64,000 bases of DNA from an uncultured Candidatus Saccharibacteria bacterium (GCA_964567265.1 CAZMLK010000002.1:138813-202812), one strand, 5' to 3'; shown: positions 10,321 through 25,364, numbered from the stretch's first letter. The notes: generated by a model not told the origin, from the letters alone. Program-made: numbers and translations.

Positions 10321-10383
10321 GCCGAAGACCCCGGCAAAACAAAAAGCCCTTCAGGGCTTTTTGTTTTGCCGGGGTCTTCGGCT
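10321..10383. terminator. long perfect inverted repeat (29-bp arms) forming a bidirectional terminator between the convergent merR-like and SET genes
   Basis: gccgaagaccccggcaaaacaaaaagccc-ttca-gggctttttgttttgccggggtcttcggc. Confidence 0.6.
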
Positions 10384-10774
10384 ACCGATAGTACGCCGCC
10401 TTCTCGTCTTCCGGCTCTTCGAGCGAGTTGTAGTCGATCAGGATTTCCTCGTCAGCCGCGATGTCGCGTGCAGCGAAATAGAGGAAGTCCGTATGGATCG
10501 CATTCGGCTCTTTCGAATGGTTCAGATACCAGCCGATCTGCATCTTGCCGAAATCCATCGGGCAGTGGAGCTCATTACCTTCGATGATGCAGTGCTGGAT
10601 GAATGATTCCGGGATATCGCTCCGCTTCAAGATGCGTACTTCCTCGCCCGCGTCGGCATGATCGCCGAAGAGTCGGAGCGGAGCGCCCTTTGCGATTGCA
10701 TGGGTCGCGAAGACGCCGACGCCGTGAGCGCCGGGCCTGAGGACGAATGAGAATTCAGTGGTCGTTGTTTCCAT
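10382..10774 (-). CDS. SET-domain protein (putative protein-lysine methyltransferase)
   Basis: GWYLNHSKEPN matches the NHSCxPN SET motif; EEILIDY matches the EELxxDY post-SET motif; 130 aa. Confidence 0.65.
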   Translation of the reverse strand: METTTTEFSFVLRPGAHGVGVFATHAIAKGAPLRLFGDHADAGEEVRILKRSDIPESFIQHCIIEGNELHCPMDFGKMQIGWYLNHSKEPNAIHTDFLYFAARDIAADEEILIDYNSLEEPEDEKAAYYR

Positions 10775-10843
10775 GAGGTCAGTATATACAATCCCCCGCC
10801 GTTTTTGCTTCGCAAAAACGGCGGGGGATTGTATTTCCTCTAA

Positions 10844-11410
10844 CTATCGAATCCCGCTGTCACACGAGATATGCGCCTCGGTCGCTTGTCCTGCGGTGAC
10901 GGTTATCATCACATCCATGCAACTCGGAAGCACTTCAGCAGCTATGGGGTGGAGCGTGTATGCGCCTGGGGCGAGCGATACCATGAACCTGCCGGACTTG
11001 TCGCTTTTCACGGTCCCTGCGAGTACCATCGACTCCTGCCGATATATCTCAATTGTGGTGGAGTACGGCCGCGGCGCGCAGCCTGGCTCCGGCGGCACCC
11101 TCTCGACAGGGCATGTCGGCGAGACATCGACAAGACCGGTCACATCGCCCTTGGCGACGGTGCTGCCGATGCGGCCGGTAGTGCCTGCGGAGGTGCCAGG
11201 GCACTCAGCAAAGCTGCAGTTCGGGCCCGTGCGTCCAACGGAGCTTCCATCGGGGCATATCTTCGCATCAGCATCGCAGACCTGGCCGCCGATTACGTCC
11301 GGTCCGGGTGCCATCGCGTGACGGACGCTCGCACCATAGAGGGCGAAGATGCCGACACAGAAGAGAAGGAGTCCCGATACGATGATGCCGAATAAATGCT
11401 TGTGGTTCAT
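10844..11410 (-). CDS. secreted/anchored protein with N-terminal Cys4 module (C-x6-C-x12-C-x4-C) and C-terminal beta-sandwich (carboxypeptidase-regulatory/Cna-B-like) region; paralog B
   Basis: Signal-anchor LFGIIVSGLLLFCVGIFALYGA; motif CDADAKICPDGSSVGRTGPNCSFAECPG; later GTVKSDKSGRFMVSLAPGAYTL. Confidence 0.65.
   Translation of the reverse strand: MNHKHLFGIIVSGLLLFCVGIFALYGASVRHAMAPGPDVIGGQVCDADAKICPDGSSVGRTGPNCSFAECPGTSAGTTGRIGSTVAKGDVTGLVDVSPTCPVERVPPEPGCAPRPYSTTIEIYRQESMVLAGTVKSDKSGRFMVSLAPGAYTLHPIAAEVLPSCMDVMITVTAGQATEAHISCDSGIR
11196..11290. repeat. nucleotide-level repeat copy 1 (encodes the Cys4 module of paralog B)
   Basis: 32-nt exact identity (cactcagcaaagctgcagttcgggcccgtgcg, 11202-11233) with 11453-11484, about 80% identity over roughly 95 nt; third diverged copy at 18086-18180. 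Confidence 0.7.
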
Positions 11411-11682
11411 TGGATTTCGATTGATCCTTCAACGGCGGCGCCAGCTCCCGGACACTCAGCAAAGCTGCAGTTCGGGCCCGTGCGGCTTACATAACTTCCA
11501 TCCGGGCACTGCTTCGCGTCCTGTGTACAGATCTGACCGCCCGTGAATTCCTCGGGACCATTTCCTATCCCGCGATTTACCTTTGCCGCATAGAGCGCGA
11601 GGACGCCGACCCCGAAGAGAAGGAGGCCGACCACGATCATGATAAAGAGTGAATGAGGCTTCATGCGGGTCATACGATTCAA
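11407..11682 (-). CDS. small (91 aa) secreted/anchored Cys4-module protein; paralog A
   Basis: Signal-anchor then CTQDAKQCPDGSYVSRTGPNCSFAECPG; 4-nt overlap (ATGA) with the downstream paralog B. Confidence 0.6.
   Translation of the reverse strand: MNRMTRMKPHSLFIMIVVGLLLFGVGVLALYAAKVNRGIGNGPEEFTGGQICTQDAKQCPDGSYVSRTGPNCSFAECPGAGAAVEGSIEIQ
11447..11541. repeat. nucleotide-level repeat copy 2 (Cys4 module of paralog A)
   Basis: See copy 1. Confidence 0.7.
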
Positions 11683-11684
11683 GA

Positions 11685-12074
11685 TTACGAAATAAGGGTA
11701 CTAAAATATCCCTGCGAGAAATATGCACCTGCGAGGCCGACAATGACCGCGACGACGAAGTACGCGAAACTCTTGAGAGTCCGGACCGACGACAGCTGCC
11801 TGACGACCATGCCCCCCAAGGGAGCAAGGATGATGTACGGGGCCGCCATTGTCGCGAATCCGTATGCCGCCATCTGTCCGCCATTATAGCCTGAGAGCTT
11901 GATAATTTCCCCGGCCAGCTTCGATCCATACTCGAGGACCTCCTTCGGGCCGAAGAAGAGCATGAGACCGGCAACGAATCCGAACGCGATATTGATAATG
12001 ATGCTGAGCAGGTTAGTTTCATCCGGAGACGCGAACGCATTCGGCATCATGGGGTTCATCTGGAACGGGTCCAT
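11685..12074 (-). CDS. small hypothetical membrane protein (3 predicted TM helices)
   Basis: Hydrophobic segments IINIAFGFVAGLMLFF, AAYGFATMAAPYIILAPLGGMVV, YFVVAVIVGLAGAYF. Confidence 0.5.
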   Translation of the reverse strand: MDPFQMNPMMPNAFASPDETNLLSIIINIAFGFVAGLMLFFGPKEVLEYGSKLAGEIIKLSGYNGGQMAAYGFATMAAPYIILAPLGGMVVRQLSSVRTLKSFAYFVVAVIVGLAGAYFSQGYFSTLIS

Positions 12075-12175
12075 ATAGGTAGAGTATATTGGCGAACCAC
12101 TGTTTCAGGAACAGGCGTTATGCACCGAGAGGGGGAGCATTGCATGCGCACCCGTTCGGCATATACTGTCGGCAT

Positions 12176-12526
12176 ATGGAAACAAACACACAGATGGTGC
12201 CGCACAACATGGTGACGACAGGCTTCGAGCTCCCGGAGCACAAGGTCATTAAGAACCTCGGGATGACGCGGGGGATTGTCGTCCGCTCGCGCTCGATCAT
12301 CGGCTCGATCGGTGCCGGCCTCCAGACCATCCTCGGCGGAGACATCACCCTCTTTACCAGTCTCTGCGAGAAGACGCGCGAGGATGCGTACAATCTCATG
12401 CTCCAGCATGCTGCTGCAATGGGCGCGAACGCGGTCATCGCGGCCCGCTATGACGCCACCGAGCTCGGCGGCGGCATCACCGAAGTCCTCGCGTACGGCA
12501 CGGCAGTTGTTGTGGAGTCGAAATAG
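12176..12526 (+). CDS. YbjQ/UPF0145 family protein
   Basis: [86 protein letters not shown] is the typical YbjQ fold sequence; start trimmed to METNT. Confidence 0.75.
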
Positions 12527-12539
12527 TTTCCGTACGTTT

Positions 12540-12583
12540 GAAACGGCAGAAGCCCGCGCGTGAGCACGGGCTTCTGCCGTTTC
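12540..12583. terminator. hairpin gaaacggcagaagcccg...cgggcttctgccgtttc after ybjQ
   Basis: 17-bp stem. Confidence 0.5.
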
Positions 12584-12602
12584 AACACATCCAAAATAGA
12601 AA

Positions 12603-12628
12603 GCCCCGGATGCGTGCGCATCCGGGGC
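12603..12628 (-). terminator. hairpin gccccggatgcgtgcgcatccggggc with T-run on the minus strand, downstream of ORF 12646-13326
   Basis: 10-bp GC stem, preceded on the plus strand by aaaataga. Confidence 0.5.
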
Positions 12629-12645
12629 CACTTCACGATCTCGAT

Positions 12646-13326
12646 TCAGCTTCCAGTGCGGACGGTTCTCCCGCCATCGATCACTTGAAGTTGAGTGGAA
12701 CTATTCGGCGCGAGTAGTTGGTTATAGAGACTCTCCAGAGCCGCAATCGCCTTCGGGTAGGTGGGATACTCGCTCCAGCTCTTCCCGTCCCAGATCCACC
12801 ACGTACGTCTTTCCGAAATGGTGCTCGAGTTAAGCGGGAGCACTTGCACCCGGATCAATTCCTGCGCCCTCTGAAGAGGATCGCCGTTGCTGTTTCCGGG
12901 GTCCGGCACCTTGTAGGTGAGGGAGATACGGAACTCTTCACCTTGGAGCCACTGCCTGGTACTGCTCCGGCGGTCGAGTAGTGCGACGGGGATGCCGACG
13001 CACTTCAAGTGGATTGATGTCGAATGGGGGAAGTTGGCCTCCCATCGTTTCTCGACTCCCCTGGAGAAATCGACCAAGGCTTCCTCAAGAAGTACCGCGG
13101 TCCGTTTCGCCGCATATGATCGTTTGAAATACCCGAAGGTGTTTCGGAACATCCGGGCCCACTTGGGGTACGTGGCACTAGCGAGCGACATGCCAGCCAA
13201 TGTCCAGGTGTGCCAAGTAAAGCCACCTGACCAGGTCCACTTGGCGGTAGAGGCGAAGAGAAACCCAAGCAGGATTGAACCCATGATGTAGGCATTCTGC
13301 TCAACCCAGTCACGCAGAGCGTCCAT
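12646..13326 (-). CDS. hypothetical protein with N-terminal TM/signal
   Basis: ILLGFLFASTA hydrophobic start, Trp-rich; no recognisable motif. Confidence 0.5.
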   Translation of the reverse strand: MDALRDWVEQNAYIMGSILLGFLFASTAKWTWSGGFTWHTWTLAGMSLASATYPKWARMFRNTFGYFKRSYAAKRTAVLLEEALVDFSRGVEKRWEANFPHSTSIHLKCVGIPVALLDRRSSTRQWLQGEEFRISLTYKVPDPGNSNGDPLQRAQELIRVQVLPLNSSTISERRTWWIWDGKSWSEYPTYPKAIAALESLYNQLLAPNSSTQLQVIDGGRTVRTGS

Positions 13327-13385
13327 TCACATTCCTCCAGTCGGGCCGACCTCACCACGAGGTGGCGTCTGAATCTGTCAGGATT

Positions 13386-13410
13386 TTGACATATTCCTAA
13401 GAAATGTCAA
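13386..13410. promoter_or_regulatory. perfect palindrome TTGACAT-N11-ATGTCAA in the promoter region of ORF 12646-13326
   Basis: 7-bp inverted half-sites, each containing a TTGACA -35-like hexamer. Confidence 0.3.
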
Positions 13411-13422
13411 ATAGTCGGAGCT

Positions 13423-13944
13423 TTACGGCACGTAGATTTCCTCGATCTTCGTCACGATGTTCCCTTGGACCGTGAGGTGGTAGGGAAGGGTGTTCCAGTG
13501 GAGGGACTTGTCGTCGATGAGCTTGGCGAATGCCGCAATGTCGATCTCGTGCGGAGCGACACCCTTGGTCTCCATGTCCAAGGTCTGCATGATGACTTTC
13601 GCAGACGGGCTGGTCTCATAGAGAAGCGGGGTCGAGGTCGACGGGTTGTCGATGAAGTAGTCATTCGGGAGGCATTCATCGCGTGTTTCCTCGGTACAGA
13701 CGCCGGCCCGGATCGCCGCATCCTCGCCCGCCTTGCCCGAAAGCCACTCGGCTTCATCAAACGCGATCCGGACATCCTTCGAGGTATCAACGTAGCGGAT
13801 GAATCCGAGCGTCGTGGTCGCGCTCTCAGTGTCCTCAGGAGTCGGCACCTCAGCCTGCTGCTTGAGAGTGTTCGCATACCAAAACCCAGCTCCAGCGATG
13901 CAGAGGATGAAAAGCGAAGCAGATAGAAAAAAGCGTTTAGACAT
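13423..13944 (-). CDS. hypothetical secreted protein
   Basis: Signal peptide MSKRFFLSASLFILCIAGAGFWYA; the ATG sits inside the terminator hairpin of the upstream gene; ORF-track TTG start at 13950 is also possible. Confidence 0.5.
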   Translation of the reverse strand: MSKRFFLSASLFILCIAGAGFWYANTLKQQAEVPTPEDTESATTTLGFIRYVDTSKDVRIAFDEAEWLSGKAGEDAAIRAGVCTEETRDECLPNDYFIDNPSTSTPLLYETSPSAKVIMQTLDMETKGVAPHEIDIAAFAKLIDDKSLHWNTLPYHLTVQGNIVTKIEEIYVP

Positions 13945-13964
13945 GTACAAAGTCTAAACGCTTT
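13930..13964 (-). terminator. 13-bp perfect hairpin aaagcgtttagac-atgtacaaa-gtctaaacgcttt followed by T6 on the minus strand
   Basis: Terminates ORF 13986-14624; its loop and left arm overlap the start codon of ORF 13423-13944. Confidence 0.55.
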
Positions 13965-13985
13965 TCCAAAGACTGGCTATAGATT

Positions 13986-14624
13986 CTAATCAAGCAATTT
14001 GAAGCTTTTCCAGATCCGATCAAGATCTGCCATCGGAATTCCGCGTGTCGTTATGCGGTAAAAATATCCTTTCCAAATGAAAAGTGTTGTGCGCTCCTCA
14101 TCTTGCTCAGCCACGGTATGTACGGGATCTTTGGACATGTCGAACTTCCTCGTCAACGCAGGAACGCCAGAAACGGTCGTCTGCCCGATAAGATAATTTT
14201 CTTCATTGCCAACCCAGTGGTGGTATTCATCCGACAGTGATCCAGTCGCTGCTTGGGAGTTTACGGTAAGGATCCTCTCCTTCCCGGTCATATCATTTGC
14301 AATGAGCGCATAGGATGTATATTGATTCGGGTCGCCTTCGCCTACTAACATGCCGGAGGGGCGAAATTCCATATCGGAAGGCGCGTCAACGGAAAAGTGA
14401 AGAAAGTCATTTTTGTAGCGAACCCATTCACTAGAGAGCTGGGTGGATGACCCAGTGAATGATGTCGGAAGTTCATCTGCGCGTAATGTCCGACTTCCTT
14501 GCATACTCACACTCTGTGGAGCCTTACCAGAGTTCATTTTTGCAGCGAAATAAATAATACCCCCTGCGATAACGAGGGCCCCGAGAAAAATAAATGTAGC
14601 GACGCTGAGGTTTGATTTTTTCAT
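13986..14624 (-). CDS. hypothetical N-terminally anchored protein (low-GC island gene 1)
   Basis: MKKSNLSVATFIFLGALVIAGGIIYFAA anchor; about 45% GC versus about 60% background. Confidence 0.5.
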   Translation of the reverse strand: MKKSNLSVATFIFLGALVIAGGIIYFAAKMNSGKAPQSVSMQGSRTLRADELPTSFTGSSTQLSSEWVRYKNDFLHFSVDAPSDMEFRPSGMLVGEGDPNQYTSYALIANDMTGKERILTVNSQAATGSLSDEYHHWVGNEENYLIGQTTVSGVPALTRKFDMSKDPVHTVAEQDEERTTLFIWKGYFYRITTRGIPMADLDRIWKSFKLLD

Positions 14625-14692
14625 GTGGATGCAATGATAGCAATAAGAAATTTTGGATTTAAAAAAAGTAGTTGCCCTATCTTACATGGAAC

Positions 14693-15553
14693 TTAATGCA
14701 ATTCGACATGTCCAAATGGTGATTTTTCCACTCTAACGCAAGGCAATGTCTGGGCAATTTCGTTGATCGTTTCCAATTGCGCTTGGCTCTTGGATGGGGG
14801 CCATGCTCCCTCAATCGACAATGCCCATTCACCCACATCCTCCAAAACATAAGTGTAAGTCACTATTTTTGCACCTCGTTTCTCGTGGATGATGATGGTT
14901 TGCGTCGTAACCTCTTTGATGGAGTCAACCAACTGCTGAACGACCTCACTGCGTGCATCTGGTGGAATTTCAAAAATAATGCTTGGCGCGTCAGCAGTTG
15001 TTGCTCGGTCGTAGTAGGAAGTCACTACTGCAATATTCCTTGAGTCAATTTTCTTACTGGTGATTGATTTCCAGATTGCAATAATTATTCCGTCTCGCAC
15101 TATTTCCCACATTGCTGAATCTATATCAGCTTGAATGTGAGCAATGGCCCAGTCTTTTATAGGAATGAGTATTGTTATGGCGTGGGAAGCGAAGTCCACC
15201 AGACCTATCATTTCTGCGCTCACCCCTCCTCCATATCCATGGGTATGCCAATTTAGCTCGTATTGATACTTCCCATCTATGTGTTCTTTGGCATGCTCAA
15301 CAGCCGCATCATCCACAATTGTCACCTCCAACCCCGTTTGTTTTGAGGTCAATTCAGAGACTAAGGGTGTAAGTAGGGAGTTCTCGATTTTTATGCGAAG
15401 TTTCAAGTCCCCGTTGCCAATAATGTTCTGGGCCGATTCTCTTGCCGCCTCAAGTTCTGCGTAATATTTTTGTGAAAAATCAAACACTCTAGCAGATTTT
15501 CGCTGTTCTAGGATACGGAGTAAAAAATTTTCGAGTTGTTCAAAAATTCGCAT
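14693..15553 (-). CDS. hypothetical cytoplasmic protein (low-GC island gene 2), contains NWHTHGYGGG motif
   Basis: 286 aa, no TM, no recognisable family; lower GC than surroundings. Confidence 0.5.
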   Translation of the reverse strand: MRIFEQLENFLLRILEQRKSARVFDFSQKYYAELEAARESAQNIIGNGDLKLRIKIENSLLTPLVSELTSKQTGLEVTIVDDAAVEHAKEHIDGKYQYELNWHTHGYGGGVSAEMIGLVDFASHAITILIPIKDWAIAHIQADIDSAMWEIVRDGIIIAIWKSITSKKIDSRNIAVVTSYYDRATTADAPSIIFEIPPDARSEVVQQLVDSIKEVTTQTIIIHEKRGAKIVTYTYVLEDVGEWALSIEGAWPPSKSQAQLETINEIAQTLPCVRVEKSPFGHVELH

Positions 15554-15594
15554 ATATTCGTAAACAGGCCTCCTTGCGGAAGCCTGTTTCTTTT

Positions 15595-16746
15595 CTACTC
15601 TTCTTTTTTGTCAGCTTTGCCTTCGAGGATTTCAAACACTTTCTCGTTACGCATGATGGTTTCGACGTACATGCGGACCGAGTCGGGGTTTGCTTCCTTG
15701 TAGTGCTCGAGGACGTGGTTCACGTCGCGGGCGACCTTGTCCTCAGGGAGGAGGATGGTCTCCTTCTCGCTGATCGCGTTCAGGATGAGCTGGAGCTTGG
15801 CGCGCTTCTCGGCTTCTGGCTCCCATTCCTTGCGGATGTCCTCAGGCGATTTGCCGAGGTGCTGGAAGTAGGTTTCCGGCTCGACGCCCATGCGCTCGAT
15901 CTCGGAGCGGAACTCGCCCATCATCTTGTCGAGCTCTGAGTCCTTGAGGATCTTCGGGAGGGCGATCGTTGCTTTCTCGACGAGCGCTTCGACGATGGCG
16001 AGGCGACGCTTCTCCTTTTCCTTCATTTCTTTCTCGGATTTGATGTTCTCACCAATCTTGGTGCGGAACTCGGCGACGGTGCCGAATGAGCCGAGCTTCT
16101 GGACGAACGCGTCGTCGAGCGCAGGAAGGTCCTCGTCCTTGATGTCGCTGCCGTCGTGCGCGCCGTGTTCGCCGGCTTCGTGACCTTCTTCGTCCTCATG
16201 CGCGTGATGCTGCTCGTAGTGCGCCATGCGGCGGCGGATGGCGAGAATGGCCTCATCCACTTCTGCTTCGGTTGGGTCGGCGACCGTGCTCTCCATCTTC
16301 TTCACGATCTTCTCGGAGATTGCCTTGTAGTCGGGGAGCTCGAAGGTCGGGACGACCGCCGTTTTCGCGACGAAGGAGACGGGGTTGCCGCGCGCGAGCT
16401 TGGTGATCGAGATATGCGGCCGGCCGATCACATCGAGCTCGTTGTCGATGATGATCGCGGGATACACGTCGGCGAGCGCTCGCTCGGCCATTTCTTCCAT
16501 GATCGCCATCTCGCCCACCTGCTTCACGAGCACCTCCTCAGGAACATGTCCTTTGCGGAAGCCGTCGATCTCTACCCGCTCGCTGACATACTTCACGGCC
16601 GCCTTCCGGTAGCTGTTGATGACTTCGACCGGGATATCGCCGCGGATTTCAAGCTCTGACTGCTCGAGCTTGATGATCTCGAGGTTGGTATATGGCTGAT
16701 TTCCTGGCTTCTTTACTTCGTTTGTTTCCTCGTGTGAGTCTTGCAT
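15595..16746 (-). CDS. tig: trigger factor lacking the PPIase domain (His/Glu-rich linker instead)
   Basis: Ribosome-binding signature GFRKGHVP in the N-domain, TF C-terminal chaperone domain; middle region HYEQHHAHEDEEGHEAGEHGAHDGSD replaces the FKBP domain. Confidence 0.8.
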   Translation of the reverse strand: MQDSHEETNEVKKPGNQPYTNLEIIKLEQSELEIRGDIPVEVINSYRKAAVKYVSERVEIDGFRKGHVPEEVLVKQVGEMAIMEEMAERALADVYPAIIIDNELDVIGRPHISITKLARGNPVSFVAKTAVVPTFELPDYKAISEKIVKKMESTVADPTEAEVDEAILAIRRRMAHYEQHHAHEDEEGHEAGEHGAHDGSDIKDEDLPALDDAFVQKLGSFGTVAEFRTKIGENIKSEKEMKEKEKRRLAIVEALVEKATIALPKILKDSELDKMMGEFRSEIERMGVEPETYFQHLGKSPEDIRKEWEPEAEKRAKLQLILNAISEKETILLPEDKVARDVNHVLEHYKEANPDSVRMYVETIMRNEKVFEILEGKADKKEE

Positions 16747-16828
16747 AGGCCCGACTATAGCAGAAAAACCACGCGCCCGTCCATGTGTGGACGGGCGCGT
16801 GGTTTTCGTCTATTTCAGGTCGTGGACA

Positions 16829-17269
16829 CTAGTTCCCGGACGTAGTATTGACTCCCTGCATGTCGCCATCGAGCGATTCGACATTGGTTGCGTTCAAGTC
16901 TGCTTCGATCGATGAGGTCTCGTCTGACGAGCTCTGCGTTTGAAGGGCTTTCACTGCCGGATCCTCTGAAGCGCCATTGCTGGTGCTGGTCGGCGGCGTC
17001 TGCGCCTTCTGATCTGGGACCGCACTGTTCTGCTCGTCGGAGAGCATCTGCTGGTTGAGGCGCATGCCCCAATAGTAGAGGCCTCCGATCGCGACCAGTG
17101 CGACGATGATGATCGCGCCGATCATCTGGCCGACGCTCGAGGAACCTTTCGGTGCCTCTGGAGGGGCGGCAGGCGGGACCATCATGTTCGGCACGCTGGT
17201 CGCCGGGGCAGGGGTTGGCGCTGCGGGAGCCGGAGCTACTCCTGGGGCGGAAGGCGTTTGTTCGTCCAT
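16829..17269 (-). CDS. hypothetical membrane protein with Pro/Ala-rich N-terminus
   Basis: APAPAAPTPAPATS low complexity, one TM (IGAIIIVALVAIGGLYYW), Ser/Thr-rich tail. Confidence 0.45.
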   Translation of the reverse strand: MDEQTPSAPGVAPAPAAPTPAPATSVPNMMVPPAAPPEAPKGSSSVGQMIGAIIIVALVAIGGLYYWGMRLNQQMLSDEQNSAVPDQKAQTPPTSTSNGASEDPAVKALQTQSSSDETSSIEADLNATNVESLDGDMQGVNTTSGN

Positions 17270-17295
17270 AGCGGATGTTTTACGGATTTTTAATA

Positions 17296-18285
17296 CTATT
17301 CACCGGCATGCTCACCCTCATTGCTCTCCCTAGTCGTCGTCGCGGTCGGAGCTTTTTTCTTCGGTTCGAACGTTTTGAGGAGTCGGACGGCAGCTTCGAG
17401 CTCGCTCTGCGCTGTCTTCAGGTTCCCCTTGATGCTCTCGACAAGGTCGCGCACCTTCGAGAACTCGCCTTCAGGATCATCGGATGCAATCACGGTGGCG
17501 AAAGTCGTCTTGATGTTCCCGATGCTCGACTGTGCTGCCGCAAGCGCTGCGCGGGCAGTGATGACATGGGACTTCGCTTCCCCGACATCCTTGCCGTCGG
17601 CTTCAAGCTTCGCGATCCGTGAATCGATACGGTCTGCGATCTTGAGGAGGCGGCCGTACGCGACATCGAGGCGCGCGGCGACATGGCTCACTTCATCGGC
17701 AACCTTCGCCTTTATGCGCTCCCTTGTCGACGACGCGATCTTCTGCCACATCTCCTGGCGCTTCTCGCGAAGCTCATCGAGCGGTCCGCCGTTCCCCTTC
17801 ATCTGGCCAGGGAATACTGCTGGCCGCGTGCCGGTCGCCATGCCCGGCTTGGTCGTTGAGGCCATGCGCATGCGCATCTCCTTCTCGCGCATTTCCATCA
17901 TATTTGAAGCCGTCGTTGATGCTTGGATCTTCTTCAACATCTCTGGGGTCGGCTTCTGGAGCGGACGATTCGTCGTTGACCCTTCTGATCCCCTTGCCGG
18001 CGGCATCGGAGGCGGGGGTACGTCGCCCTCAACATGGTCTCCGCCAGTCCGTGCTCCCGTCGGAGGCTTCGCGGTGGCCGCTCCCGGACACTTCGCGAAT
18101 TCGCAGTGCGGGCCGGTGCGTCCGACGGCGCTGCCGTCTGGACACATCTTCGCTTCCGCGGTACAGATTACGCCGGCACTCGCGTCGGCGTCCGCCGTCT
18201 CGTCAGCAAGCGCGAACGATACGCCGAACAAAAAAACAAATCCAATGGACAGGAAAGTACTGCCCAGTACGCGCATTCTCGTCAT
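17296..18285 (-). CDS. secreted Cys4-module protein with long coiled-coil/Met-rich C-terminal region; paralog C
   Basis: Signal peptide, then CTAEAKMCPDGSAVGRTGPHCEFAKCPG, then Pro-rich spacer and alpha-helical heptad region. Confidence 0.6.
   Translation of the reverse strand: MTRMRVLGSTFLSIGFVFLFGVSFALADETADADASAGVICTAEAKMCPDGSAVGRTGPHCEFAKCPGAATAKPPTGARTGGDHVEGDVPPPPMPPARGSEGSTTNRPLQKPTPEMLKKIQASTTASNMMEMREKEMRMRMASTTKPGMATGTRPAVFPGQMKGNGGPLDELREKRQEMWQKIASSTRERIKAKVADEVSHVAARLDVAYGRLLKIADRIDSRIAKLEADGKDVGEAKSHVITARAALAAAQSSIGNIKTTFATVIASDDPEGEFSKVRDLVESIKGNLKTAQSELEAAVRLLKTFEPKKKAPTATTTRESNEGEHAGE
18086..18180. repeat. nucleotide-level repeat copy 3 (Cys4 module of paralog C), more diverged
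   Basis: gcagtgcgggccggtgcgtccgacggcgctgccgtctggacacatcttcgc aligns with copies 1 and 2. Confidence 0.55.
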
Positions 18286-18414
18286 AGCTATTACCTTAGT
18301 AGTAAGAATCTTCTCAGAGATTGAAAAGATCGGGAACCAGTGGTGTTGTATGTAGTATACAAACGAGCGCTCGCATATGCGAGCGCTCGTTTGTTGATAA
18401 CTCAGGGGTTTCGC

Positions 18415-18939
18415 CTACTTCGCGAACTTCTCGTTGTAAAGCTCGAGGCTCTTCTCGAAGTCCTTCTTTGCGTCAGCGGCGCCGCGGAAGCCCTTTACCT
18501 CCACTTCCTTGTTCTGGAGCTTCTTGTAGGTCGAGAAGAAGTGCTCGATTTCCTTGAGGGTGTGCTTGTTGATGTCGGAAAGGTCCTTCACATCGCTCCA
18601 CCGTGGGTCTTTGACCGGCACGGCGATTATCTTGTTGTCGGATTCGCCGTCATCCACCATGTCCATGACTGCGACTGGCCGGACGCGGACCAGGATGCCG
18701 GGCGCGAGCGGGTAGGTCGTGAGGACGAGCGCGTCGAGCGCATCCTCGTCGTACCAGTACGACTGCGGAATGAAGCCATAATCGAACGGATAGTCCTGGG
18801 AAGTATGCATCGCGCGGTCGAGGGCGATCAAGCCCGTTTCCTTGTCGATCTCGTACTTGTTCTTCGAGCCCTTCGGGATCTCGATGATGACATTCATCTC
18901 GTCAGCCGTTCCCGGCTTCACATCGTGCCAATAGTTCAT
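18415..18939 (-). CDS. ppa: inorganic pyrophosphatase (family I)
   Basis: YPFDYGFIPQSY..DGDALDALVL..., 174 aa. Confidence 0.9.
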   Translation of the reverse strand: MNYWHDVKPGTADEMNVIIEIPKGSKNKYEIDKETGLIALDRAMHTSQDYPFDYGFIPQSYWYDEDALDALVLTTYPLAPGILVRVRPVAVMDMVDDGESDNKIIAVPVKDPRWSDVKDLSDINKHTLKEIEHFFSTYKKLQNKEVEVKGFRGAADAKKDFEKSLELYNEKFAK

Positions 18940-19002
18940 AGTTCTAGTCTTTAAGTGCTTAGTCTGTAGTCTATAACCAGTCCTTTGGAGGAGAAAGGGG
19001 GA

Positions 19003-20193
19003 TTACTCCTCGGTTTTCTCTGCTGCTGCCTCCTCAGTCGCGGCTTCTGCCGGCGCTTCCGGGGCGGCTTCCTCTTCCGAAGCTTCATCTGCGGCTACGG
19101 TCGGCGCTTTTGCGGAGTGGATGTCGATCTTCCAGCCGGTCAGCTTTGCGGCGAGGCGGACATTCTGTCCGGCCTTGCCGATCGCGAGAGACTGCTGGTC
19201 TTCCGCGACCTCGACGAGCGCGCGGTGCGCGCCGTCGTCGATGACGACATTCATGACCTTTGCAGGGGAGAGTGCGTCCTCGACGAACTGCTTCTGGTTC
19301 TCAGACCACTCGATGATGTCGATCTTCTCGCCACCGAGCTCGCTCATGACGGTCGAGACGCGCACTCCGCGCTGGCCGACGAGGGAACCGACTGGGTCGA
19401 TGTGGGTATCGGTCGACGCGACGGCGATCTTGGAGCGGCTTCCCGGCTCGCGGGCGATCGCCTTCACGACGACGGTGCCGGAAACGAGCTCAGGCGCCTC
19501 GAATTCGAAGAGCTTCTCGAGGAATTTCGGGTGTGAGCGTGAAAGGCGGAGGAAGACGCCGCGTGGTCCTTCCTCGACATTGTAGAGGTAAGCGCGGAGG
19601 CGCTCTCCCTGGCGGAATCGCTCGCCGGGGATCTGTTCGTCATACGGGAGGATGCCGGTCGCGCGGCCAAGGTCGATGTAGATGTTGCCGCGCTCGATGC
19701 GCTGGACCGAACCGCTCACGATATCGCCTTCGCGCTCGCCGAATTCGTTGAGCACGGAGACCTTTTCCGCTTCGCGGATCTTCTGGATGATGACCTGCTT
19801 GGCAGTCTGGGCGGCGATGCGTCCAAAATCATCCTGCGGCTCGAGCGGGAAGACGATCTCGTCGTCGAGCTCGGCGCCTTTCTTGATGCGGCGTGCATCC
19901 TCGAGGAGGATGTGGTGTTCCGGGTTGAAGCGGACGCGCTCGTCGTCTTCCGGAGCGTCTTCCTCGTCCATGCGGACCTGGGTATCATCAACGACCAGCT
20001 TTACCTGGTAGAACTCGGTCGAACCGGTGCCAATGTCGAACTTGGCACGCACGATCTGGCCGCGCTTGCCGAATTCCTTGCGGTACGCGGTCGCGAGCGA
20101 CTGCTCGATCGCCTCGATGACTTTCGCGCGGGGGATGCCGCGCTCTTCCTCGAGCTGGTCGAGGACGGAATTGATTACTTTGAGATCAAACAT
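19003..20193 (-). CDS. nusA: transcription termination/antitermination factor NusA
   Basis: NusA N-domain, S1 and tandem KH domains (IDPVGSLVGQRGVRVSTV...), acidic C-terminal tail. Confidence 0.9.
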   Translation of the reverse strand: MFDLKVINSVLDQLEEERGIPRAKVIEAIEQSLATAYRKEFGKRGQIVRAKFDIGTGSTEFYQVKLVVDDTQVRMDEEDAPEDDERVRFNPEHHILLEDARRIKKGAELDDEIVFPLEPQDDFGRIAAQTAKQVIIQKIREAEKVSVLNEFGEREGDIVSGSVQRIERGNIYIDLGRATGILPYDEQIPGERFRQGERLRAYLYNVEEGPRGVFLRLSRSHPKFLEKLFEFEAPELVSGTVVVKAIAREPGSRSKIAVASTDTHIDPVGSLVGQRGVRVSTVMSELGGEKIDIIEWSENQKQFVEDALSPAKVMNVVIDDGAHRALVEVAEDQQSLAIGKAGQNVRLAAKLTGWKIDIHSAKAPTVAADEASEEEAAPEAPAEAATEEAAAEKTEE

Positions 20194-20393: not shown

Positions 20394-22145
20394 GTGTACG
20401 TTAATACAGAACAACTGAAGGAGTTTGTCCTCGATTCGGGCCTGGTGTCCCGGAAAGACTTTGAGGCTGCGGAAAAGGCGGCTGAAGAGAAGGGGGTGAC
20501 GGTCGAGCAGGCGCTCATGAATGCGGGCAAGGCGAGCGAGGACGACATCCGCCGTGTCCAAGCCTACGTGCTCGGGATCCCGTTCATCAACCTCAAGAAG
20601 CAGAAGATCGATTTCGATATCCTCTCCCTGATCCCCGAGCCGATCGCCCGGAAGCACAACATCGTCGCCTTCAAGAAGGCGGAAGGGGCGCTCGAGGTCG
20701 CGATGCTCGACATCGACAACCTCCAGGCGATCGAGTTCGTGAAGAAGAAGGTGGGTCTCAAGATCTTGCCACGCCTCACCGACGCGGATTCCATCAAGGA
20801 ACTCCTCCTGCAGTACCAGAAGACACTCAAGGACGAATTCGGCGACCTCATCAAGAAAGAATCTGCAACACTCGACGTGCTGCCGGAAGGGGAGGACGCG
20901 TCCGTCTCCGAGAAGGACCTCAAGAAGATCGCGGAGGACCTGCCGGTGGTGCGCATCGTGAATTCGCTCCTCAAGCATGCGATCATCCAGGACGCATCCG
21001 ACATCCACATCGAGCCCATGGAGAACGAGGTGCTGGTGCGGTACCGCATCGACGGCCTCCTCCATGACGCGATGACGCTTCCGAAGAACGCAGGCGCGTC
21101 GATCACCGCGCGCATCAAGGTGCTTTCGAACCTGAAATTGGATGAGAAGCGCCTCCCGCAGGACGGCCGCTTCAAGATGCGCATCGACAACGACAAGGTG
21201 TCATTCCGCGTCTCGATCCTCCCGACGTATTTCGGCGAGAAGACCGTGATGCGCCTCCTTCGCGAGTCGGGCGGCGGCTTCACACTCGAAAGTCTCGGCT
21301 TCCACGGCGAAGGACTGGAACGCATCCATGCAGCGACCAAGCTCGCCACCGGCATGATCCTCACGACCGGACCGACCGGAAGCGGCAAGACGACGACGCT
21401 CTATACCGTGCTTGATATCTTGAATACGCCGGATGTGAACATTTCTACTATCGAGGACCCGATCGAGTACCAGATGGCGCGTGTCAACCAGACGCAGGTC
21501 AAGCCGGAGATCGGATTCACGTTCACGAACGGCCTCCGCTCGCTGGTGCGCCAGGACCCGGACATCATCATGGTGGGAGAAATTCGCGACGGAGAGACGG
21601 CGTCGCTCGCCATCAATGCGTCTTTGACCGGCCACTTGGTGCTTTCGACGCTCCACACCAACAGCGCTACGGGAACCATGCCGCGCCTCATCGACATGGG
21701 CTGCGAGCCGTTCCTGATCGTTTCCACCTTGAATGTGGTCATTGGCCAGCGCCTCGTGCGCAAGCTGACCGGGGGGAAGGAGGAATACAATCTCTCGTCC
21801 GCGGAAATCAAATCATTGTCCGAGCATGCCGATCTCGACCTAGTCTTGAAGACATTGAAGGATGAGAGCATCGTCCCCAAGAACGCCACCTTCGACAAGA
21901 TCCCGTTCTACAGGCCGGTCGCCTCTCCCGAAGCAGGGGATGGCTACAAGGGTCGTATCGGCATCCACGAGGTGTTCAAGATGACGCCGACCATCCGCGA
22001 GATGGTGATGCAGGGAAAGACCGCGGCTGATATCGAGGTGCAGGCGAAGAAAGAAGGTATGCTCACGATGCTCGAGGACGGCATCTTCAAGGCTGTCGAG
22101 GGCGTGACGACGATCGAGGAGGTCTTGCGCGTCGTCAGCGAATAA
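20394..22145 (+). CDS. pilB: type IV pilus assembly ATPase PilB (GspE family)
   Basis: GSPII_E N-domain, Walker A GPTGSGKTTTLYTVL, Asp box, His box, tetracysteine-less variant. Confidence 0.9.
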   Translation: MYVNTEQLKEFVLDSGLVSRKDFEAAEKAAEEKGVTVEQALMNAGKASEDDIRRVQAYVLGIPFINLKKQKIDFDILSLIPEPIARKHNIVAFKKAEGALEVAMLDIDNLQAIEFVKKKVGLKILPRLTDADSIKELLLQYQKTLKDEFGDLIKKESATLDVLPEGEDASVSEKDLKKIAEDLPVVRIVNSLLKHAIIQDASDIHIEPMENEVLVRYRIDGLLHDAMTLPKNAGASITARIKVLSNLKLDEKRLPQDGRFKMRIDNDKVSFRVSILPTYFGEKTVMRLLRESGGGFTLESLGFHGEGLERIHAATKLATGMILTTGPTGSGKTTTLYTVLDILNTPDVNISTIEDPIEYQMARVNQTQVKPEIGFTFTNGLRSLVRQDPDIIMVGEIRDGETASLAINASLTGHLVLSTLHTNSATGTMPRLIDMGCEPFLIVSTLNVVIGQRLVRKLTGGKEEYNLSSAEIKSLSEHADLDLVLKTLKDESIVPKNATFDKIPFYRPVASPEAGDGYKGRIGIHEVFKMTPTIREMVMQGKTAADIEVQAKKEGMLTMLEDGIFKAVEGVTTIEEVLRVVSE

Positions 22146-22346
22146 CTCACCATACTAAAAAGATTCGCCGCGGGCCCCTTTGGGGCCCGCGGCGTTTCGC
22201 TACGATACAGGTTCTTCCATATCGAACTCTATCTGGCGCACGGGGATACTAGTGCCCGGTATTCGCTCGCAAGCAGCGAAGAAGTCGCGATTATCCGCAT
22301 TTCTCGCGTAGCGAGAAATGCGGATTGCTCTTACAATTGAAATGCA

Positions 22347-23567
22347 ATGGCGATCTTTACGTACAAGGCGACGAACAAGGAAGGGGAAGAGTATGAAGGG
22401 ACCGCGACCGTCGCCGACCGATTCGAGCTCTACTCGCATATCCAGAAGGAAGGCGGCACGATCATTTCCTATGCCGAGGGTAGTGCGGGCGGCGGTTTCA
22501 CGCTCGATGCGCTCATTAGCAAGATTTTCGGCCGCGTGAAGGAAACGGACAAGATCGTTCTTACAAGGAATCTCTCCGCGATGCTTACGGCAGGACTCTC
22601 GCTCACGCGCGCGATGGCCGTGATGAACCGCCAGACCAAGAACAAGAAGCTCAAAACCATCCTTGGGATGGTCGAGGGCTCGATCGAGAAGGGCGGCACC
22701 TTCCATGAGGCGCTGATCCCGTACCCGAACGTATTCAGTCCGCTCATGGTCGCCATGGTGAAGGCGGGCGAGGAAGGCGGCCGCCTCGCGGAATCGCTCT
22801 CGACGATCTCGAACCAGCTCGACCGCTCGTACAACCTCAAGAAGAAGATCCGCGGCGCGCTCATCTATCCCTCGATCGTCATCTTCGCGCTCGTGGTCGT
22901 CGGCATCCTGATGCTCATCTTCATCGTGCCGACCTTGACGAAGACCTTCACCGAGCTCCATGTTGAGCTCCCGGCCAGCACGAAGTTCGTCATCGCGTCG
23001 AGCAATTTCCTCACGCACCATACAGCCACCGCCGTCGCGATCGCCCTCCTCATCGCGGGCGGGGTCTGGATGGCGCTGCGGACCAAGAACGGCCGGCGCA
23101 CGTTCGAGTGGCTCCTTCTCCGCATCCCGATCATCGGCACGCTGGTCCGCGAGACGAATGCCGCCCGCACTGCGCGCACGCTCTCCTCGCTGCTTTCGTC
23201 GGGCGTCGAGATCGTCCGCTCGCTCGAGATCACCGTCGAGGTGGTGCAGAACTCGTACTACAAGGAAGTGATCGTCGAGGCGGGGGAGCGCATCCAGAAA
23301 GGACTCCCGCTCTTCGAGGTGTTCAACAAGTACGAGTCGTTGTACCCGCCCTTGGTCGCGGAACTGATCGCGGTCGGCGAGGAGACTGGAAAGCTCCCGG
23401 ACATGCTGCTCCAGATCGCGGATTTCTACGAGCGCGAAGTCGAGCAGAAGACGAAGGATATGTCGACCATCATCGAGCCGTTCCTCATGATCATCGTGGG
23501 CTCGGTCGTCGGCTTCTTCGCGGTCTCGATGATCACGCCGATCTACTCCATCACGGAGAATATTTAA
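22347..23567 (+). CDS. pilC: type IV pilus inner-membrane platform protein PilC (GspF family)
   Basis: Two T2SSF repeats, three TM segments. Confidence 0.9.
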   Translation: MAIFTYKATNKEGEEYEGTATVADRFELYSHIQKEGGTIISYAEGSAGGGFTLDALISKIFGRVKETDKIVLTRNLSAMLTAGLSLTRAMAVMNRQTKNKKLKTILGMVEGSIEKGGTFHEALIPYPNVFSPLMVAMVKAGEEGGRLAESLSTISNQLDRSYNLKKKIRGALIYPSIVIFALVVVGILMLIFIVPTLTKTFTELHVELPASTKFVIASSNFLTHHTATAVAIALLIAGGVWMALRTKNGRRTFEWLLLRIPIIGTLVRETNAARTARTLSSLLSSGVEIVRSLEITVEVVQNSYYKEVIVEAGERIQKGLPLFEVFNKYESLYPPLVAELIAVGEETGKLPDMLLQIADFYEREVEQKTKDMSTIIEPFLMIIVGSVVGFFAVSMITPIYSITENI

Positions 23568-23596
23568 TGCAGGCGTAATCCTGGCATTCTGCCGCA

Positions 23597-25357
23597 ATGA
23601 CTTTTCGCACCACACATTCGGCCGCGCGCGGCTTCTCACTCATCGATACCATCATCGGCATCGCGCTCATGACCATCGTCTTCTTCGCGCTCTTCGGCGC
23701 GTTCCGCTTCAGCTTGATCCTACTCGGCATCGCGAAGGCAAAGATCAGCGCGATCGCGCTCGCGAACGAGCAGATGGAATACATCCGCTCCATCGATTAC
23801 GACTCGGTCGGTACCGTGTCCGGCATCCCGGCAGGCGCGATCCCTCAGATAGAGAATTTCACCTACAACAATATCGCCTACACGCGGCGCGTGCTGGTGC
23901 AGTACGAGGATGCGCCGCAGGACGGGCTCGGCGCCGCCGACTCGAACAGTCTCACCGCCGACTACAAGCGCATCAAGGTCACGGTCTCGTGGACGGCGCG
24001 CGGCCGCGCGTTCGAGTACTCGCTCATCTCGACCATGGTGCCGCGCGGCGTCGAGAGCGTCGCGGGCGGCGGTACGCTCCGCATTTATGCGCTCTCAGCG
24101 CTCGGCGCGCCGCTCGATGATGCGACCGTACGAATCCAGAACCCGTCAACAACGCCCGCGATCGACGTCACGGTGAATACGAACAGCGCCGGCAAGGTCG
24201 AATTTCCGGGCGGCACGCCGGCCGCGAGCGGCTACCAGATCACCGTCTCGAAGAGCGGATACAGCACGGCGAAGACGTATTCGGTCACGGCCGCGAACCC
24301 GAGCCCAAGCCCTGGCCATCTCACGGTGGTCGCCGGCGGCACCACGAGCTCGACCTTCTCGATCGATCAGACGGCGACGAATACCATCCGCACCTTCATC
24401 CCGCTCCAGGCAGGCAGCTTCTCGGATTCGTTCCCGAACAGCGCGCAGACATCGCTCCTCGCCTCGACGACGGTTGCGGGAGGCGAGGTGGATCTCGTGA
24501 TTGATCCAGATACCAGCGATTATGCGCCGCAGGGGGAGGTGCGCTCGACGACTGTGAATCCGTCATACCTGTACTCGTGGGAATCGTTCTCCTGGACCGA
24601 CGACCGGCCAGCGGGCACGGATATCCGTTATCGCGTGTACTACGATACCGGTTCTGGATACGCGCTCGTGCCGGATAGCGCCCTGCCGGGAAATGCGCTC
24701 GGCGCGACGACTTCACCGATTGTGCTCACGACGCTTGCAACGACCACCTATCCGCGCCTCCGGCTCTCGGCAACACTTGCGGCCTCTGTGGGATCAACTA
24801 CGCCGAGCGTCCATGACTGGGATCTCTCATACAAAGGCGGCCCGACGCCGCTTCCGAATATCGCATTCACGCTCCAGGGTGCGAAGACTATCGGCACCAA
24901 TGGCGTCGGCACGCCTATATATAAGTACTCGCAGAGCCTGAATACGGGCGCGAGCTCCGTGGTTGCGGTTCCCGGCCTCGAGTGGGACAACTACACCATC
25001 ACGCTTTCAGGCGGCACCTATGACATCGCGGAATCCTGCAAGCCGCAGCCGGTCGGCGTGACGCCCGGGAGCATGATCACGACTGATCTCACACTTGCGG
25101 CGCATACCACGAACTCGCTCCTGGTCGCGGTCCGTGACAATGCCGGCGCACTCGCTTCTGGCGCGACGGTGCGCCTCTATGGCGGCGCGACCGACATCAC
25201 GAAGACAAGTTCCGAATGCGGGCAGGCCTTCTTCAGCAGCCTCTCTTCAAGCCTTCCGTACACGCTCGAGGTGTCGAAGTCTGGCTTCCAGACGACCACC
25301 ATCACGCCGGTCAATGTGGGCGGGAACCAGAGTATGAGCGCGACCATCAATCCGTAA
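23597..25357 (+). CDS. large prepilin-like (pseudopilin/minor pilin) protein
   Basis: Leader MTFRTTHSAARG then FSLIDTIIGIALMTIVFFALF (class III signal-like, D at +5), 586 aa Thr/Ser-rich beta-type body. Confidence 0.55.
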   Translation: MTFRTTHSAARGFSLIDTIIGIALMTIVFFALFGAFRFSLILLGIAKAKISAIALANEQMEYIRSIDYDSVGTVSGIPAGAIPQIENFTYNNIAYTRRVLVQYEDAPQDGLGAADSNSLTADYKRIKVTVSWTARGRAFEYSLISTMVPRGVESVAGGGTLRIYALSALGAPLDDATVRIQNPSTTPAIDVTVNTNSAGKVEFPGGTPAASGYQITVSKSGYSTAKTYSVTAANPSPSPGHLTVVAGGTTSSTFSIDQTATNTIRTFIPLQAGSFSDSFPNSAQTSLLASTTVAGGEVDLVIDPDTSDYAPQGEVRSTTVNPSYLYSWESFSWTDDRPAGTDIRYRVYYDTGSGYALVPDSALPGNALGATTSPIVLTTLATTTYPRLRLSATLAASVGSTTPSVHDWDLSYKGGPTPLPNIAFTLQGAKTIGTNGVGTPIYKYSQSLNTGASSVVAVPGLEWDNYTITLSGGTYDIAESCKPQPVGVTPGSMITTDLTLAAHTTNSLLVAVRDNAGALASGATVRLYGGATDITKTSSECGQAFFSSLSSSLPYTLEVSKSGFQTTTITPVNVGGNQSMSATINP

Positions 25358-25364
25358 GAGCGAT

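Follow-up and report, generated by a model that had tools for sequence, protein, structure and literature searches.

A four-cysteine extracytoplasmic module shared by three exported proteins of an uncultured Saccharibacteria bacterium and by a large protein family

Three genes with a common cysteine module

This report concerns a small four-cysteine protein module, three copies of which are encoded within a 64,000-nucleotide stretch of DNA (the window; GCA_964567265.1, CAZMLK010000002.1:138813-202812) from an uncultured Candidatus Saccharibacteria bacterium. A first-pass annotation, made from the DNA sequence, had singled out three open reading frames (ORFs) as a family of secreted proteins that share the module near their N termini and diverge beyond it. 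The genes, here called A, B and C, and their module copies are as follows.

10844-11410, minus strand: gene A, 188 amino acids (aa); signal-anchor, module, flexible linker and a predicted CnaB/transthyretin-like beta-sandwich with four further conserved cysteines
11407-11682, minus strand: gene B, 91 aa from a TTG start; signal-anchor, one four-cysteine module and a 14-residue tail
17296-18285, minus strand: gene C, 329 aa; signal peptide, module, proline-rich linker and a tail rich in helix-favouring residues
11201-11278, minus strand: module copy in A, CDADAKICPDGSSVGRTGPNCSFAEC (regular-expression scan)
11452-11529, minus strand: module copy in B, CTQDAKQCPDGSYVSRTGPNCSFAEC (regular-expression scan)
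18088-18165, minus strand: module copy in C, CTAEAKMCPDGSAVGRTGPHCEFAKC (regular-expression scan and profile match)

All three ORFs were confirmed at the annotated coordinates, on the minus strand, and each begins with a hydrophobic segment. Their module copies fit the 28-residue pattern of the first-pass annotation letter for letter, and the ATGA in which the stop codon of B overlaps the start codon of A is present in the sequence. The annotated distance of at most 15 residues between anchor and module was slightly optimistic; in translations read by eye, the first cysteine lies about 15 to 19 residues past the hydrophobic segment. In the public record, B begins at an ATG at 11673, 9 nucleotides downstream of the TTG, which yields an 88-aa protein (identical to database protein P0001). 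A relative with 68% identity to B (P0002) is encoded on an independent contig.

A six-frame regular-expression scan of the 64 kb for C-x6-C-x12-C-x4-C with CPDG returned exactly three instances. The window was also re-tested with a hidden Markov model (HMM) built only from module instances outside the window, by using 1,239 six-frame segments. The three ORFs were matched at E values of 3.3e-19 (B), 2.8e-17 and 4.5e-17, and the next best segment at 0.024, so the match is far beyond chance.

Because the similarity between A and B (58.5% identity over 82 aa) includes the anchor as well as the module, we consider these genes true tandem paralogues. Their module copies share a 32-nucleotide stretch of identical DNA. 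Across all three genes, the module DNA is 84% identical per column, with synonymous differences. C resembles A and B in only its N-terminal 84 or so residues (43%). The third-position GC content (GC3) of the module genes, 0.61 to 0.70, matches that of the coding sequence of this genome, and the closest named relatives of the encoded proteins are Kaiserbacteria and Parcubacteria proteins. As to the divergent tails that had been proposed, the beta-sandwich of A and the short tail of B stand; the long coiled coil of C is no more than putative, for its tail has a composition rich in helix-favouring residues and only sub-threshold matches to coiled-coil-type NCBIfam models. B is the minimal form of a module protein.

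A widely shuffled domain family

The description of these genes as a three-member family is correct for the window but understates the family. When 1.84 billion cluster representatives (50%-identity clusters) were searched with a profile, module-bearing representatives numbered 9,495 at E <= 1e-3, 5,747 at E <= 1e-10 and 148 at E <= 1e-30. The module is one widely shuffled domain that is joined to unrelated tails; the protein clusters that contain it number at least 9,495, a single protein may carry up to 11 tandem copies, and the three genes of the window are ordinary members of this large family.

In GTDB (one genome per species), a single peptide pattern matched at least 598 stretches, of which 593 were confirmed. 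Lineage and architecture counts given below refer to the best 80 of these at least 593 loci, which hold 84 module-bearing ORFs; lineages were read from record titles, and some labels of metagenome-assembled genomes (MAGs) may be unreliable. Most of the 80 loci (62) belong to Candidate Phyla Radiation (CPR)/Patescibacteria lineages, namely Parcubacteria classes, Saccharibacteria and Microgenomates-type organisms, and eight are labelled only as "bacterium". The other 10 carry the labels Micavibrio, Labilithrix, Alpha- and Gammaproteobacteria MAGs, Syntrophobacteraceae and, in one case, a Methanosarcinales MAG. A cultured carrier is Methylocapsa polymorpha RX1, whose plasmid pRX1 (NZ_CP136863.1, at about 85.1 to 86.0 kb) encodes one module in an unannotated ORF (L087). 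No match to the module was found in a collection of phage records.

The top multi-copy matches are eukaryotic, from the diatom Seminavis robusta (CAB9514042, CAB9523274, CAB9509094 and CAB9508380) and a foraminiferan, Rosalina. The Seminavis robusta proteins (P0045, P0047, P0050 and P0061) and the Rosalina sp. protein (P0076) contain seven to 11 tandem modules, and reading by eye reveals N-terminal signal peptides in these diatom and foraminiferan array proteins.

This distribution bears on the earlier suggestion that the module could serve an episymbiont as a host-contact handle. Because the module extends beyond CPR organisms, to diatom, foraminiferan, Myxococcota-labelled and Micavibrio-labelled genomes, and because C behaves as a conserved, core-like gene (see below), that idea is unsupported.

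Several observations concern individual carriers. Some of the eukaryotic array proteins bear machine-assigned names such as "chitinase", "PKD" and "receptor-like protein kinase"; four were scanned singly, and none passed a Pfam threshold. Motifs of the CEGDCD type in Seminavis P0045 are reminiscent of the ACR domains of diatom frustulins. The Methylocapsa pRX1 module ORF is missing from the PLSDB gene table and adjoins a second unlisted ORF with an apparent YkuD-type L,D-transpeptidase motif, SSGCIRM, noted by eye.

Conserved residues and predicted fold

The consensus of 480 unique module instances is C-[TP]-x-[DE]-A-K-x-C-P-D-G-[ST]-x-V-[GS]-R-x-G-P-x-C-E-F-x-x-C-P. Conservation in these instances is at least 92% at the four cysteines and at D/E4, D10, G11, S/T12, V14, R16, P19 and F23. 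The cysteine spacing is 6/12-13/4 in more than 90% of 717 instances, and the module contains no CxxC. Conservation of the cysteines in homologues, on which the first-pass annotation had staked its proposal, was confirmed by using a motif anchored on non-cysteine residues: all four are kept in 681 of 683 instances. The 44 apparent "CCCx" exceptions are C-x3-C spacing variants rather than losses of a cysteine.

An AlphaFold2 (AF2) model of the module, based on a 34-sequence alignment, has a predicted local distance difference test (pLDDT) score of 85.5 and consists of a small beta-hairpin plus one more short strand, without a helix. In the AF2 model of full-length A, the module stands apart as a bead, with a low-confidence linker on either side. 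Positions 3, 7, 13, 15 and 17 vary and positions 14 and 16 do not, an alternation that is consistent with a hairpin having one variable and one conserved face. Our working definition of the family is an extracytoplasmic C-x6-C-x12/13-C-x3/4-C with D/E4, D10-G11, V14, R16, P19 and F23, a description that fits all three window copies. These data support the view that the module is an autonomous mini-domain of about 26 to 30 residues that resides outside the cytoplasm.

Position at the membrane and partner domains

That the module follows a signal peptide or anchor, as had been proposed, applies to most but not all of its carriers. A single N-terminal hydrophobic segment is present in 63 of the 84 GTDB ORFs; the module begins a median of about 12 residues beyond it, and within 26 residues in 53 of these ORFs. 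In 17 others, the module instead follows transmembrane segment 5 (TM5) of a TspO_MBR domain with five such segments (confirmed by Pfam, best E value 2.4e-54). In 13 full-length TspO fusions, lysine and arginine are abundant in the N terminus and in loops 2 and 4, and scarce in loops 1 and 3 and in the tail that precedes the module. By the positive-inside rule, this distribution places the module that follows TM5 on the outside. The module is extracytoplasmic in all bacterial architectures that we examined.

Not all of the N-terminal segments appear to be of the same kind. Judged by eye, L001, L002, L046 and C seem to have cleavable signal peptides, with ALA|DE as the likely site in C; cleavage would make the module the mature N terminus. 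A and B are probably type II membrane proteins, given their uncharged segments of 23 to 24 residues that lack a good signal-peptidase site.

The domains that accompany the module are diverse. A Pfam scan of the 84 GTDB ORFs identified TspO (17), PsbP_2 (13), PG_binding_1 (4), Hint_2 (4), CarboxypepD_reg (4) and Pacifastin-like (3) partners, as well as PKD, Gmad2, Kre9_KNH, SNase, TIG and Kazal. Among the 148 top-scoring proteins, which form a multi-copy set, the partners are Pacifastin (6), PG_binding_1 (4), Kazal (3), Kunitz (2) and Antistasin (2), together with PKD, Ricin_B, Hint, META and SIMPL; most of these proteins have no second Pfam domain. Moreover, a homologue search with a 42-column module alignment, which returned tiny proteins only, uncovered 37 proteins of 32 to 74 aa that consist of an anchor and the module alone, as in B.

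Some architectures merit individual description. TspO-module fusions are found in many lineages and are encoded at L003, L009, L020, L031, L034, L036, L037, L042, L049, L060, L065, L068, L074 and other loci; some carry an additional C-terminal domain, and that of L034 ends in a beta-sandwich like the one in A. Many CPR module proteins (L011, L014, L017 and L030; P0006, P0015 and P0033) open with QKGF(A/S)xILI, which resembles a class III type IV prepilin signal. No glutamate is apparent at +5 in these proteins, which may be pilin-like substrates. P0015 and P0022 have a second small cysteine motif, GCIGSAGYSWCE(E/Q)KQKCLRxWEExC, beside the module, and P0014 and P0023 have DUF333 (PF03891) there instead. 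Exported proteins of CPR organisms seem to shuffle several tiny cysteine modules. Finally, a group of Myxococcota-like lipoproteins (P0236, P0245, P0261, P0262, P0307 and P0008) shares an N-terminal cysteine-rich domain (GNGQTCSW, DGCNDCSC and GIMCT.RAC, in that order) with sub-threshold similarity to Pacifastin_I, followed by two to five modules and sometimes by Kunitz.

The beta-sandwich of protein A

The homologues of A number 344 matches, and the nearest named one is a hypothetical protein of Kaiserbacteria with 45% identity. An alignment of 28 of these sequences consists of the module, a variable linker and a domain with a conserved GPTCPVE, C111 and a PRC motif. The sequence CD[ST]GIR forms the extreme C terminus of every member, is invariant throughout and could act in sorting or processing as a signal.

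The AF2 model of A (pLDDT 85.4) has a helix at residues 3-27, module strands at 49-51, 57-61 and 66-67, and low-confidence linkers at 30-40 and 76-80. Residues 88-188 are all-beta, with pLDDT scores mostly of 88 to 98 over residues 91-188. By using Foldseek, this domain was matched with probability 1.0 to CnaB2 (8bdw, E value 4.5e-5) and to the transthyretin-like domain of carboxypeptidase D (2.3e-3), and also to the Gram-positive pilins GBS52 and SpaA and to SdrD B domains. The fold class to which these structures belong is a prealbumin-like beta-sandwich of seven strands, and from the all-beta model and the Foldseek matches we classify the C-terminal part of A as a predicted CnaB/transthyretin-like beta-sandwich. 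CarboxypepD_reg (PF13620) scores 17.7 bits on A (E value 0.0045) and 25.6 bits on the homologue P0229, against a cutoff of 32.3, and PF13620 is recorded for many members of the A family. Unlike CarboxypepD_reg and CnaB domains, A has two additional conserved cysteine pairs and the invariant CD[ST]GIR end.

The cysteines of this sandwich provide an indication of the chemistry of the compartment. Four of the 28 aligned sequences lack both C164 and C183, and none lacks just one of the two. Such paired loss is a signature of a disulfide bond and implies that disulfides form extracytoplasmically in these organisms.

Comparison with known small domains

No named family was found that contains the module. 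Searches of Pfam-A (24,736 models, 2025 copy) and NCBIfam 20.0 gave no match on the module of A, B or C at E <= 10, the module regions of proteins with 10 or 11 tandem copies gave no Pfam match, and the PDB gave no significant match by sequence, profile or fold. The impression that no named domain could be recognized therefore holds for these three resources. A literature search for the module motif, PF27023, PF27300, "6BHPP" or cysteine-rich domains of CPR organisms found nothing relevant. The four-cysteine domain of Lipocone (PMC12419801) was considered and is a different domain. Comparisons with hhalign yielded probabilities of 3.7% for LDL-A, 1.1% for EGF, 0.2% for Kazal and 0.1% for Kunitz.

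The Kazal family (PF00050/PF07648) is a natural point of comparison. Like the module, Kazal domains are small, secreted and rich in disulfides, begin with C-T/P-x-E/D and continue with a C-x-[SD]-[DG]-G turn and a beta-hairpin; Kazal domains and modules even occur in the same proteins (for example, P0087). However, Kazal domains have six cysteines (paired 1-5, 2-4 and 3-6) and a C-terminal alpha-helix, whereas the module has four cysteines and, in AF2 models, strands only. The module is also far more conserved outside its cysteines.

This comparison suggests a first alternative for the function of the module: that it is a Laskowski-like canonical inhibitor of serine proteases, a knot tethered at the surface that would keep proteases, whether the cell's own or foreign, from attacking the membrane-proximal stalk or the cell itself. 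Protease inhibitors are the largest functional class of partners among the 148 top-scoring proteins, as the counts of Pacifastin, Kazal, Kunitz and Antistasin given above indicate, and proteins that mix different inhibitors are well established. The C-[TP]-x-[DE] start recalls residues P3-P2-P1-P1' of Kazal inhibitors (for example, CTLE in OMTKY3, whose sequence was confirmed), and the residue that would be P1 is among the most variable of the module (Q 27%, M 23%, E 10%, A 9% and L 7%). A secreted trypsin-like protease is encoded in the window as well (138-1328). Nevertheless, profile similarity is absent, as reflected in the hhalign values for Kazal and Kunitz; the Kazal HMM has no match at E <= 10 on A, B, C or the module regions of eight multi-repeat proteins; and Kazal chains are missing from both the PDB profile search (E <= 10) and the fold search. 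Conservation in the rest of the module far exceeds what is usual for contact residues in canonical inhibitors, and the partners of the module are mostly not inhibitors (TspO, PsbP_2, PG_binding_1, Hint and beta-sandwiches). We therefore consider an inhibitory function improbable. A mini-Kazal affiliation, which had been entertained on the basis of the C-T-x-E motif and the inhibitor-domain partners, is unsupported by Pfam, the PDB profile search and hhalign.

Class A repeats of the LDL receptor resemble the module over their first 14 to 17 residues, which align as C-x2-[DE]-x3-C-x-D-G-x2-[VI]-x-R, with PDB E values of 0.55 to 2.6 that are not significant. They differ in having six cysteines and a D-x-S-D-E calcium cage; the module has four cysteines, and the cage is absent from its consensus as read by eye. 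Kinship with LDL-A, the best PDB match by sequence, was accordingly rejected. EGF-like and similar mini-repeats of stalks share with the module their size, an occurrence in tandem arrays of eukaryotic surface proteins and an association with many unrelated domains, but no match was found between EGF-like domains and the module by sequence (hhalign, as above) or by fold (Foldseek E > 5). Also unlike repeats of the EGF type, the module has near-invariant residues other than cysteine, and in CPR organisms it is typically present in single copy and fixed beside the membrane.

Zinc ribbons and knuckles, for their part, have paired CxxC or CPxC motifs and are usually cytoplasmic, whereas the module lacks CxxC and is extracytoplasmic, as judged by architecture and by the positive-inside rule. 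The first-pass annotation had left open whether the module is a disulfide knot or a zinc knot. A tetrahedral zinc or iron site formed by the four cysteines might suit the anoxic habitats of CPR organisms, which are often anaerobes. The presence of four invariant cysteines within 26 residues is compatible with such a site, as is the lack of a disulfide-forming enzyme in the scanned part of the window (see below). The 6/12/4 spacing, which leaves no room for the CxxC or CPxC knuckles that zinc ribbons and fingers have, argues against it, as do the tandem arrays in diatom and foraminiferan proteins with signal peptides read by eye, since disulfides are the rule in secreted eukaryotic proteins. 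The extracytoplasmic location of the module in every bacterial architecture examined, and the paired loss of C164 and C183, which points to disulfide formation in that same compartment, are further arguments for disulfides. Of the two options, disulfides are thus favoured, and a metal site appears very unlikely.

On balance, small, disulfide-rich extracellular modules are a known class, to which this module adds a new family. The domain family itself is solid; its function we infer, and it is not as yet a new mechanism.

A proposed role at the base of surface proteins

The interpretation that we prefer, and that we believe to be somewhat better supported than not, is that the module is an exported beta-hairpin knot with two disulfides that serves as the membrane-proximal base of surface proteins and probably as a docking surface; both the disulfides and the function are deduced from sequence patterns and models. 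According to this proposal, the N-terminal signal or anchor segment would direct insertion or export of the protein, and of the parts that lie outside the membrane, the module would fold first. It would form a small beta-hairpin knot with two disulfides, probably C1-C3 and C2-C4, and thereby a compact, rigid, protease-resistant base situated 10 to 20 residues above the membrane. A flexible linker on this base would bear an ectodomain that differs from protein to protein; A has the CnaB/transthyretin-like sandwich, C has a helix-rich tail, and B has none. As a second role, the module would probably offer a common docking surface for an invariant component of the envelope or for an ion.

The role of a rigid, protease-resistant base is suggested by the fixed position of the module as the first folded unit, by the flexible linker and by the unrelated ectodomains. 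Binding to something invariant is suggested by the proteins that consist of an anchor and a module only and by the invariance of residues other than cysteine across phyla and kingdoms.

Several points weigh against this proposal. A search for natural variants that lack one pair of cysteines, as a guide to the pairing, found none. No disulfide-forming enzyme is encoded among the 33 window ORFs that were scanned, which are well under half of the ORFs in the window. A purely spacer-like role leaves unexplained both the near-invariance of D/E4, K6, D10, G11, V14, R16, P19 and F23 and the existence of module-only proteins. Nor do neighbouring genes hint at a partner: no gene, including oxidoreductase, peptidase or sortase-like genes, is conserved beside the module genes, and the best neighbour cluster occurs at seven of the 80 loci. 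In addition, the newer Pfam families PF27023 ("6BHPP") and PF27300 ("YdcA"), which postdate the 2025 copy of Pfam that was searched, are precomputed as "faint" (no single match at E <= 0.001) on a few proteins with three to five modules, and the module may thus have a distant tie to a recently named family.

Two side observations belong here. The "faint" annotations of PF27023 and PF27300 fall on the Myxococcota-like lipoproteins described above, and the most frequent neighbour cluster is, by eye, transketolase-like.

A related possibility is that the module is chiefly a ligand-binding handle that tethers surface proteins to the wall or the membrane by binding peptidoglycan or another glycan, a lipid headgroup or a cation such as Ca2+. 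Its charged and polar residues are near-invariant in CPR bacteria, Proteobacteria and eukaryotes, and such invariance is more easily explained by a ligand that does not evolve than by a co-evolving protein partner. The stand-alone proteins with anchor and module, the co-occurrence with PG_binding_1, the automatic name "chitinase" of diatom proteins that are nearly all module, and the weak likeness of the first 14 columns to Ca2+-binding LDL-A (E 0.55; hhalign P 0.012) agree with this possibility. However, the aromatic platform of small carbohydrate-binding knots is absent, F23 being the sole conserved aromatic residue; the likeness to LDL-A is not significant, and the D-x-S-D-E cage is missing from the consensus read by eye; and the "chitinase" names are unverified machine assignments to proteins in which no glycoside hydrolase domain was found. 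We regard this explanation as doubtful.

Beyond the base-and-docking role that we prefer, a more far-reaching conjecture is that the module is a functional unit used across kingdoms, either as a new type of membrane-tethered protease-inhibitor knot or as a universal docking handle by which dozens of CPR surface proteins that are otherwise unrelated, TspO included, would attach to a single invariant component of the envelope. This conjecture is tentative and, in our estimation, unlikely to prove correct; if true, the module would organize the poorly understood cell surface of CPR organisms. Genomes of CPR/Patescibacteria encode many small exported proteins that defy annotation, and the biology of their envelopes is poorly understood. 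As a defined family, the module would provide an annotation for thousands of "hypothetical" proteins and a simple marker of extracytoplasmic topology. It is also a small and easily expressed target, and structural and binding studies of it might bring to light an element that CPR surfaces have in common.

Gene order, transcription units and surroundings

The genes and hairpins that adjoin the module genes are listed below.

16829-17269, minus strand: 146-aa gene, rich in proline and alanine, with one hydrophobic stretch; begins 27 nucleotides past the stop codon of C
16765-16806, no strand assigned: perfect, GC-rich hairpin of 19 bp, downstream of 16829-17269; likely terminator of the unit formed by C and the 146-aa gene
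11685-12074, minus strand: 129-aa gene with three hydrophobic stretches (by eye) and a GC3 of 0.72; its stop ends 2 nucleotides before the TTG of B
10787-10833, no strand assigned: perfect, GC-rich hairpin of 20 bp, just past the stop codon of A; likely terminator of the B-A unit

The surroundings of C are conserved. The order nusA, ppa (pyrophosphatase), module gene, small transmembrane protein gene and tig is found in the window (15595-20193) and in Zambryskibacteria (L001, 582-6042), and the same nusA-ppa-C-tig order, without the small transmembrane gene, is found in Nomurabacteria (L002, 1946-6126). The tail of C is 27% identical over 159 aa to that of the L001 gene in the equivalent position, and the 146-aa protein is 31.6% identical over 76 aa to the product of L001 4589-4873, which occupies the same position. 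Because its gene order recurs in two other Parcubacteria lineages, C has the appearance of a core gene of the envelope and not of a variable effector. At the pyrophosphatase position, L001 appears by eye to encode a membrane H+-PPase; the window and L002 encode a soluble pyrophosphatase.

The 129-aa gene, whose product has no Pfam match, is probably co-transcribed with B and A, to judge from the spacing. The hairpin at 10787-10833 was called on the plus strand; since it is palindromic, it presumably works on the minus strand too. The region holds 17 terminator-like sites, compared with 7.4 expected from shuffled sequences. The palindromic hairpins of 19 to 20 bp lie between convergent or adjacent genes and could act in both directions.

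Genes around the module genes encode a TipAS/MerR regulator, a SET-domain protein, a YbjQ protein, trigger factor, pyrophosphatase and NusA. The bacterial SET-domain protein is encoded directly downstream of A (10382-10774). Six more ORFs nearby have no Pfam match; they are mostly small, and several have hydrophobic N-terminal segments. An island of low GC content lies at 13986-15553 (0.474 in 14001-16000, compared with 0.55 to 0.61 elsewhere) and includes two ORFs without a Pfam match, at 13986-14624 (GC3 0.49) and 14693-15553 (GC3 0.43). This island, situated between trigger factor and the small ORFs with hydrophobic N termini, may have been acquired horizontally.

Farther away, the trypsin-like serine protease at 138-1328 has a hydrophobic N-terminal segment, ComEC is encoded at 35420-36925, and a block of genes for ribosomal proteins, EF-G and EF-Tu was recognized by eye. 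A type IV pilus cluster (20394-25988) encodes a T2SSE/MshEN ATPase, an N_methyl pilin and a 586-aa protein. The last of these has an N terminus that is pilin-like by eye and terminal CarboxypepD_reg repeats, which belong to the same fold class as the tail of A.

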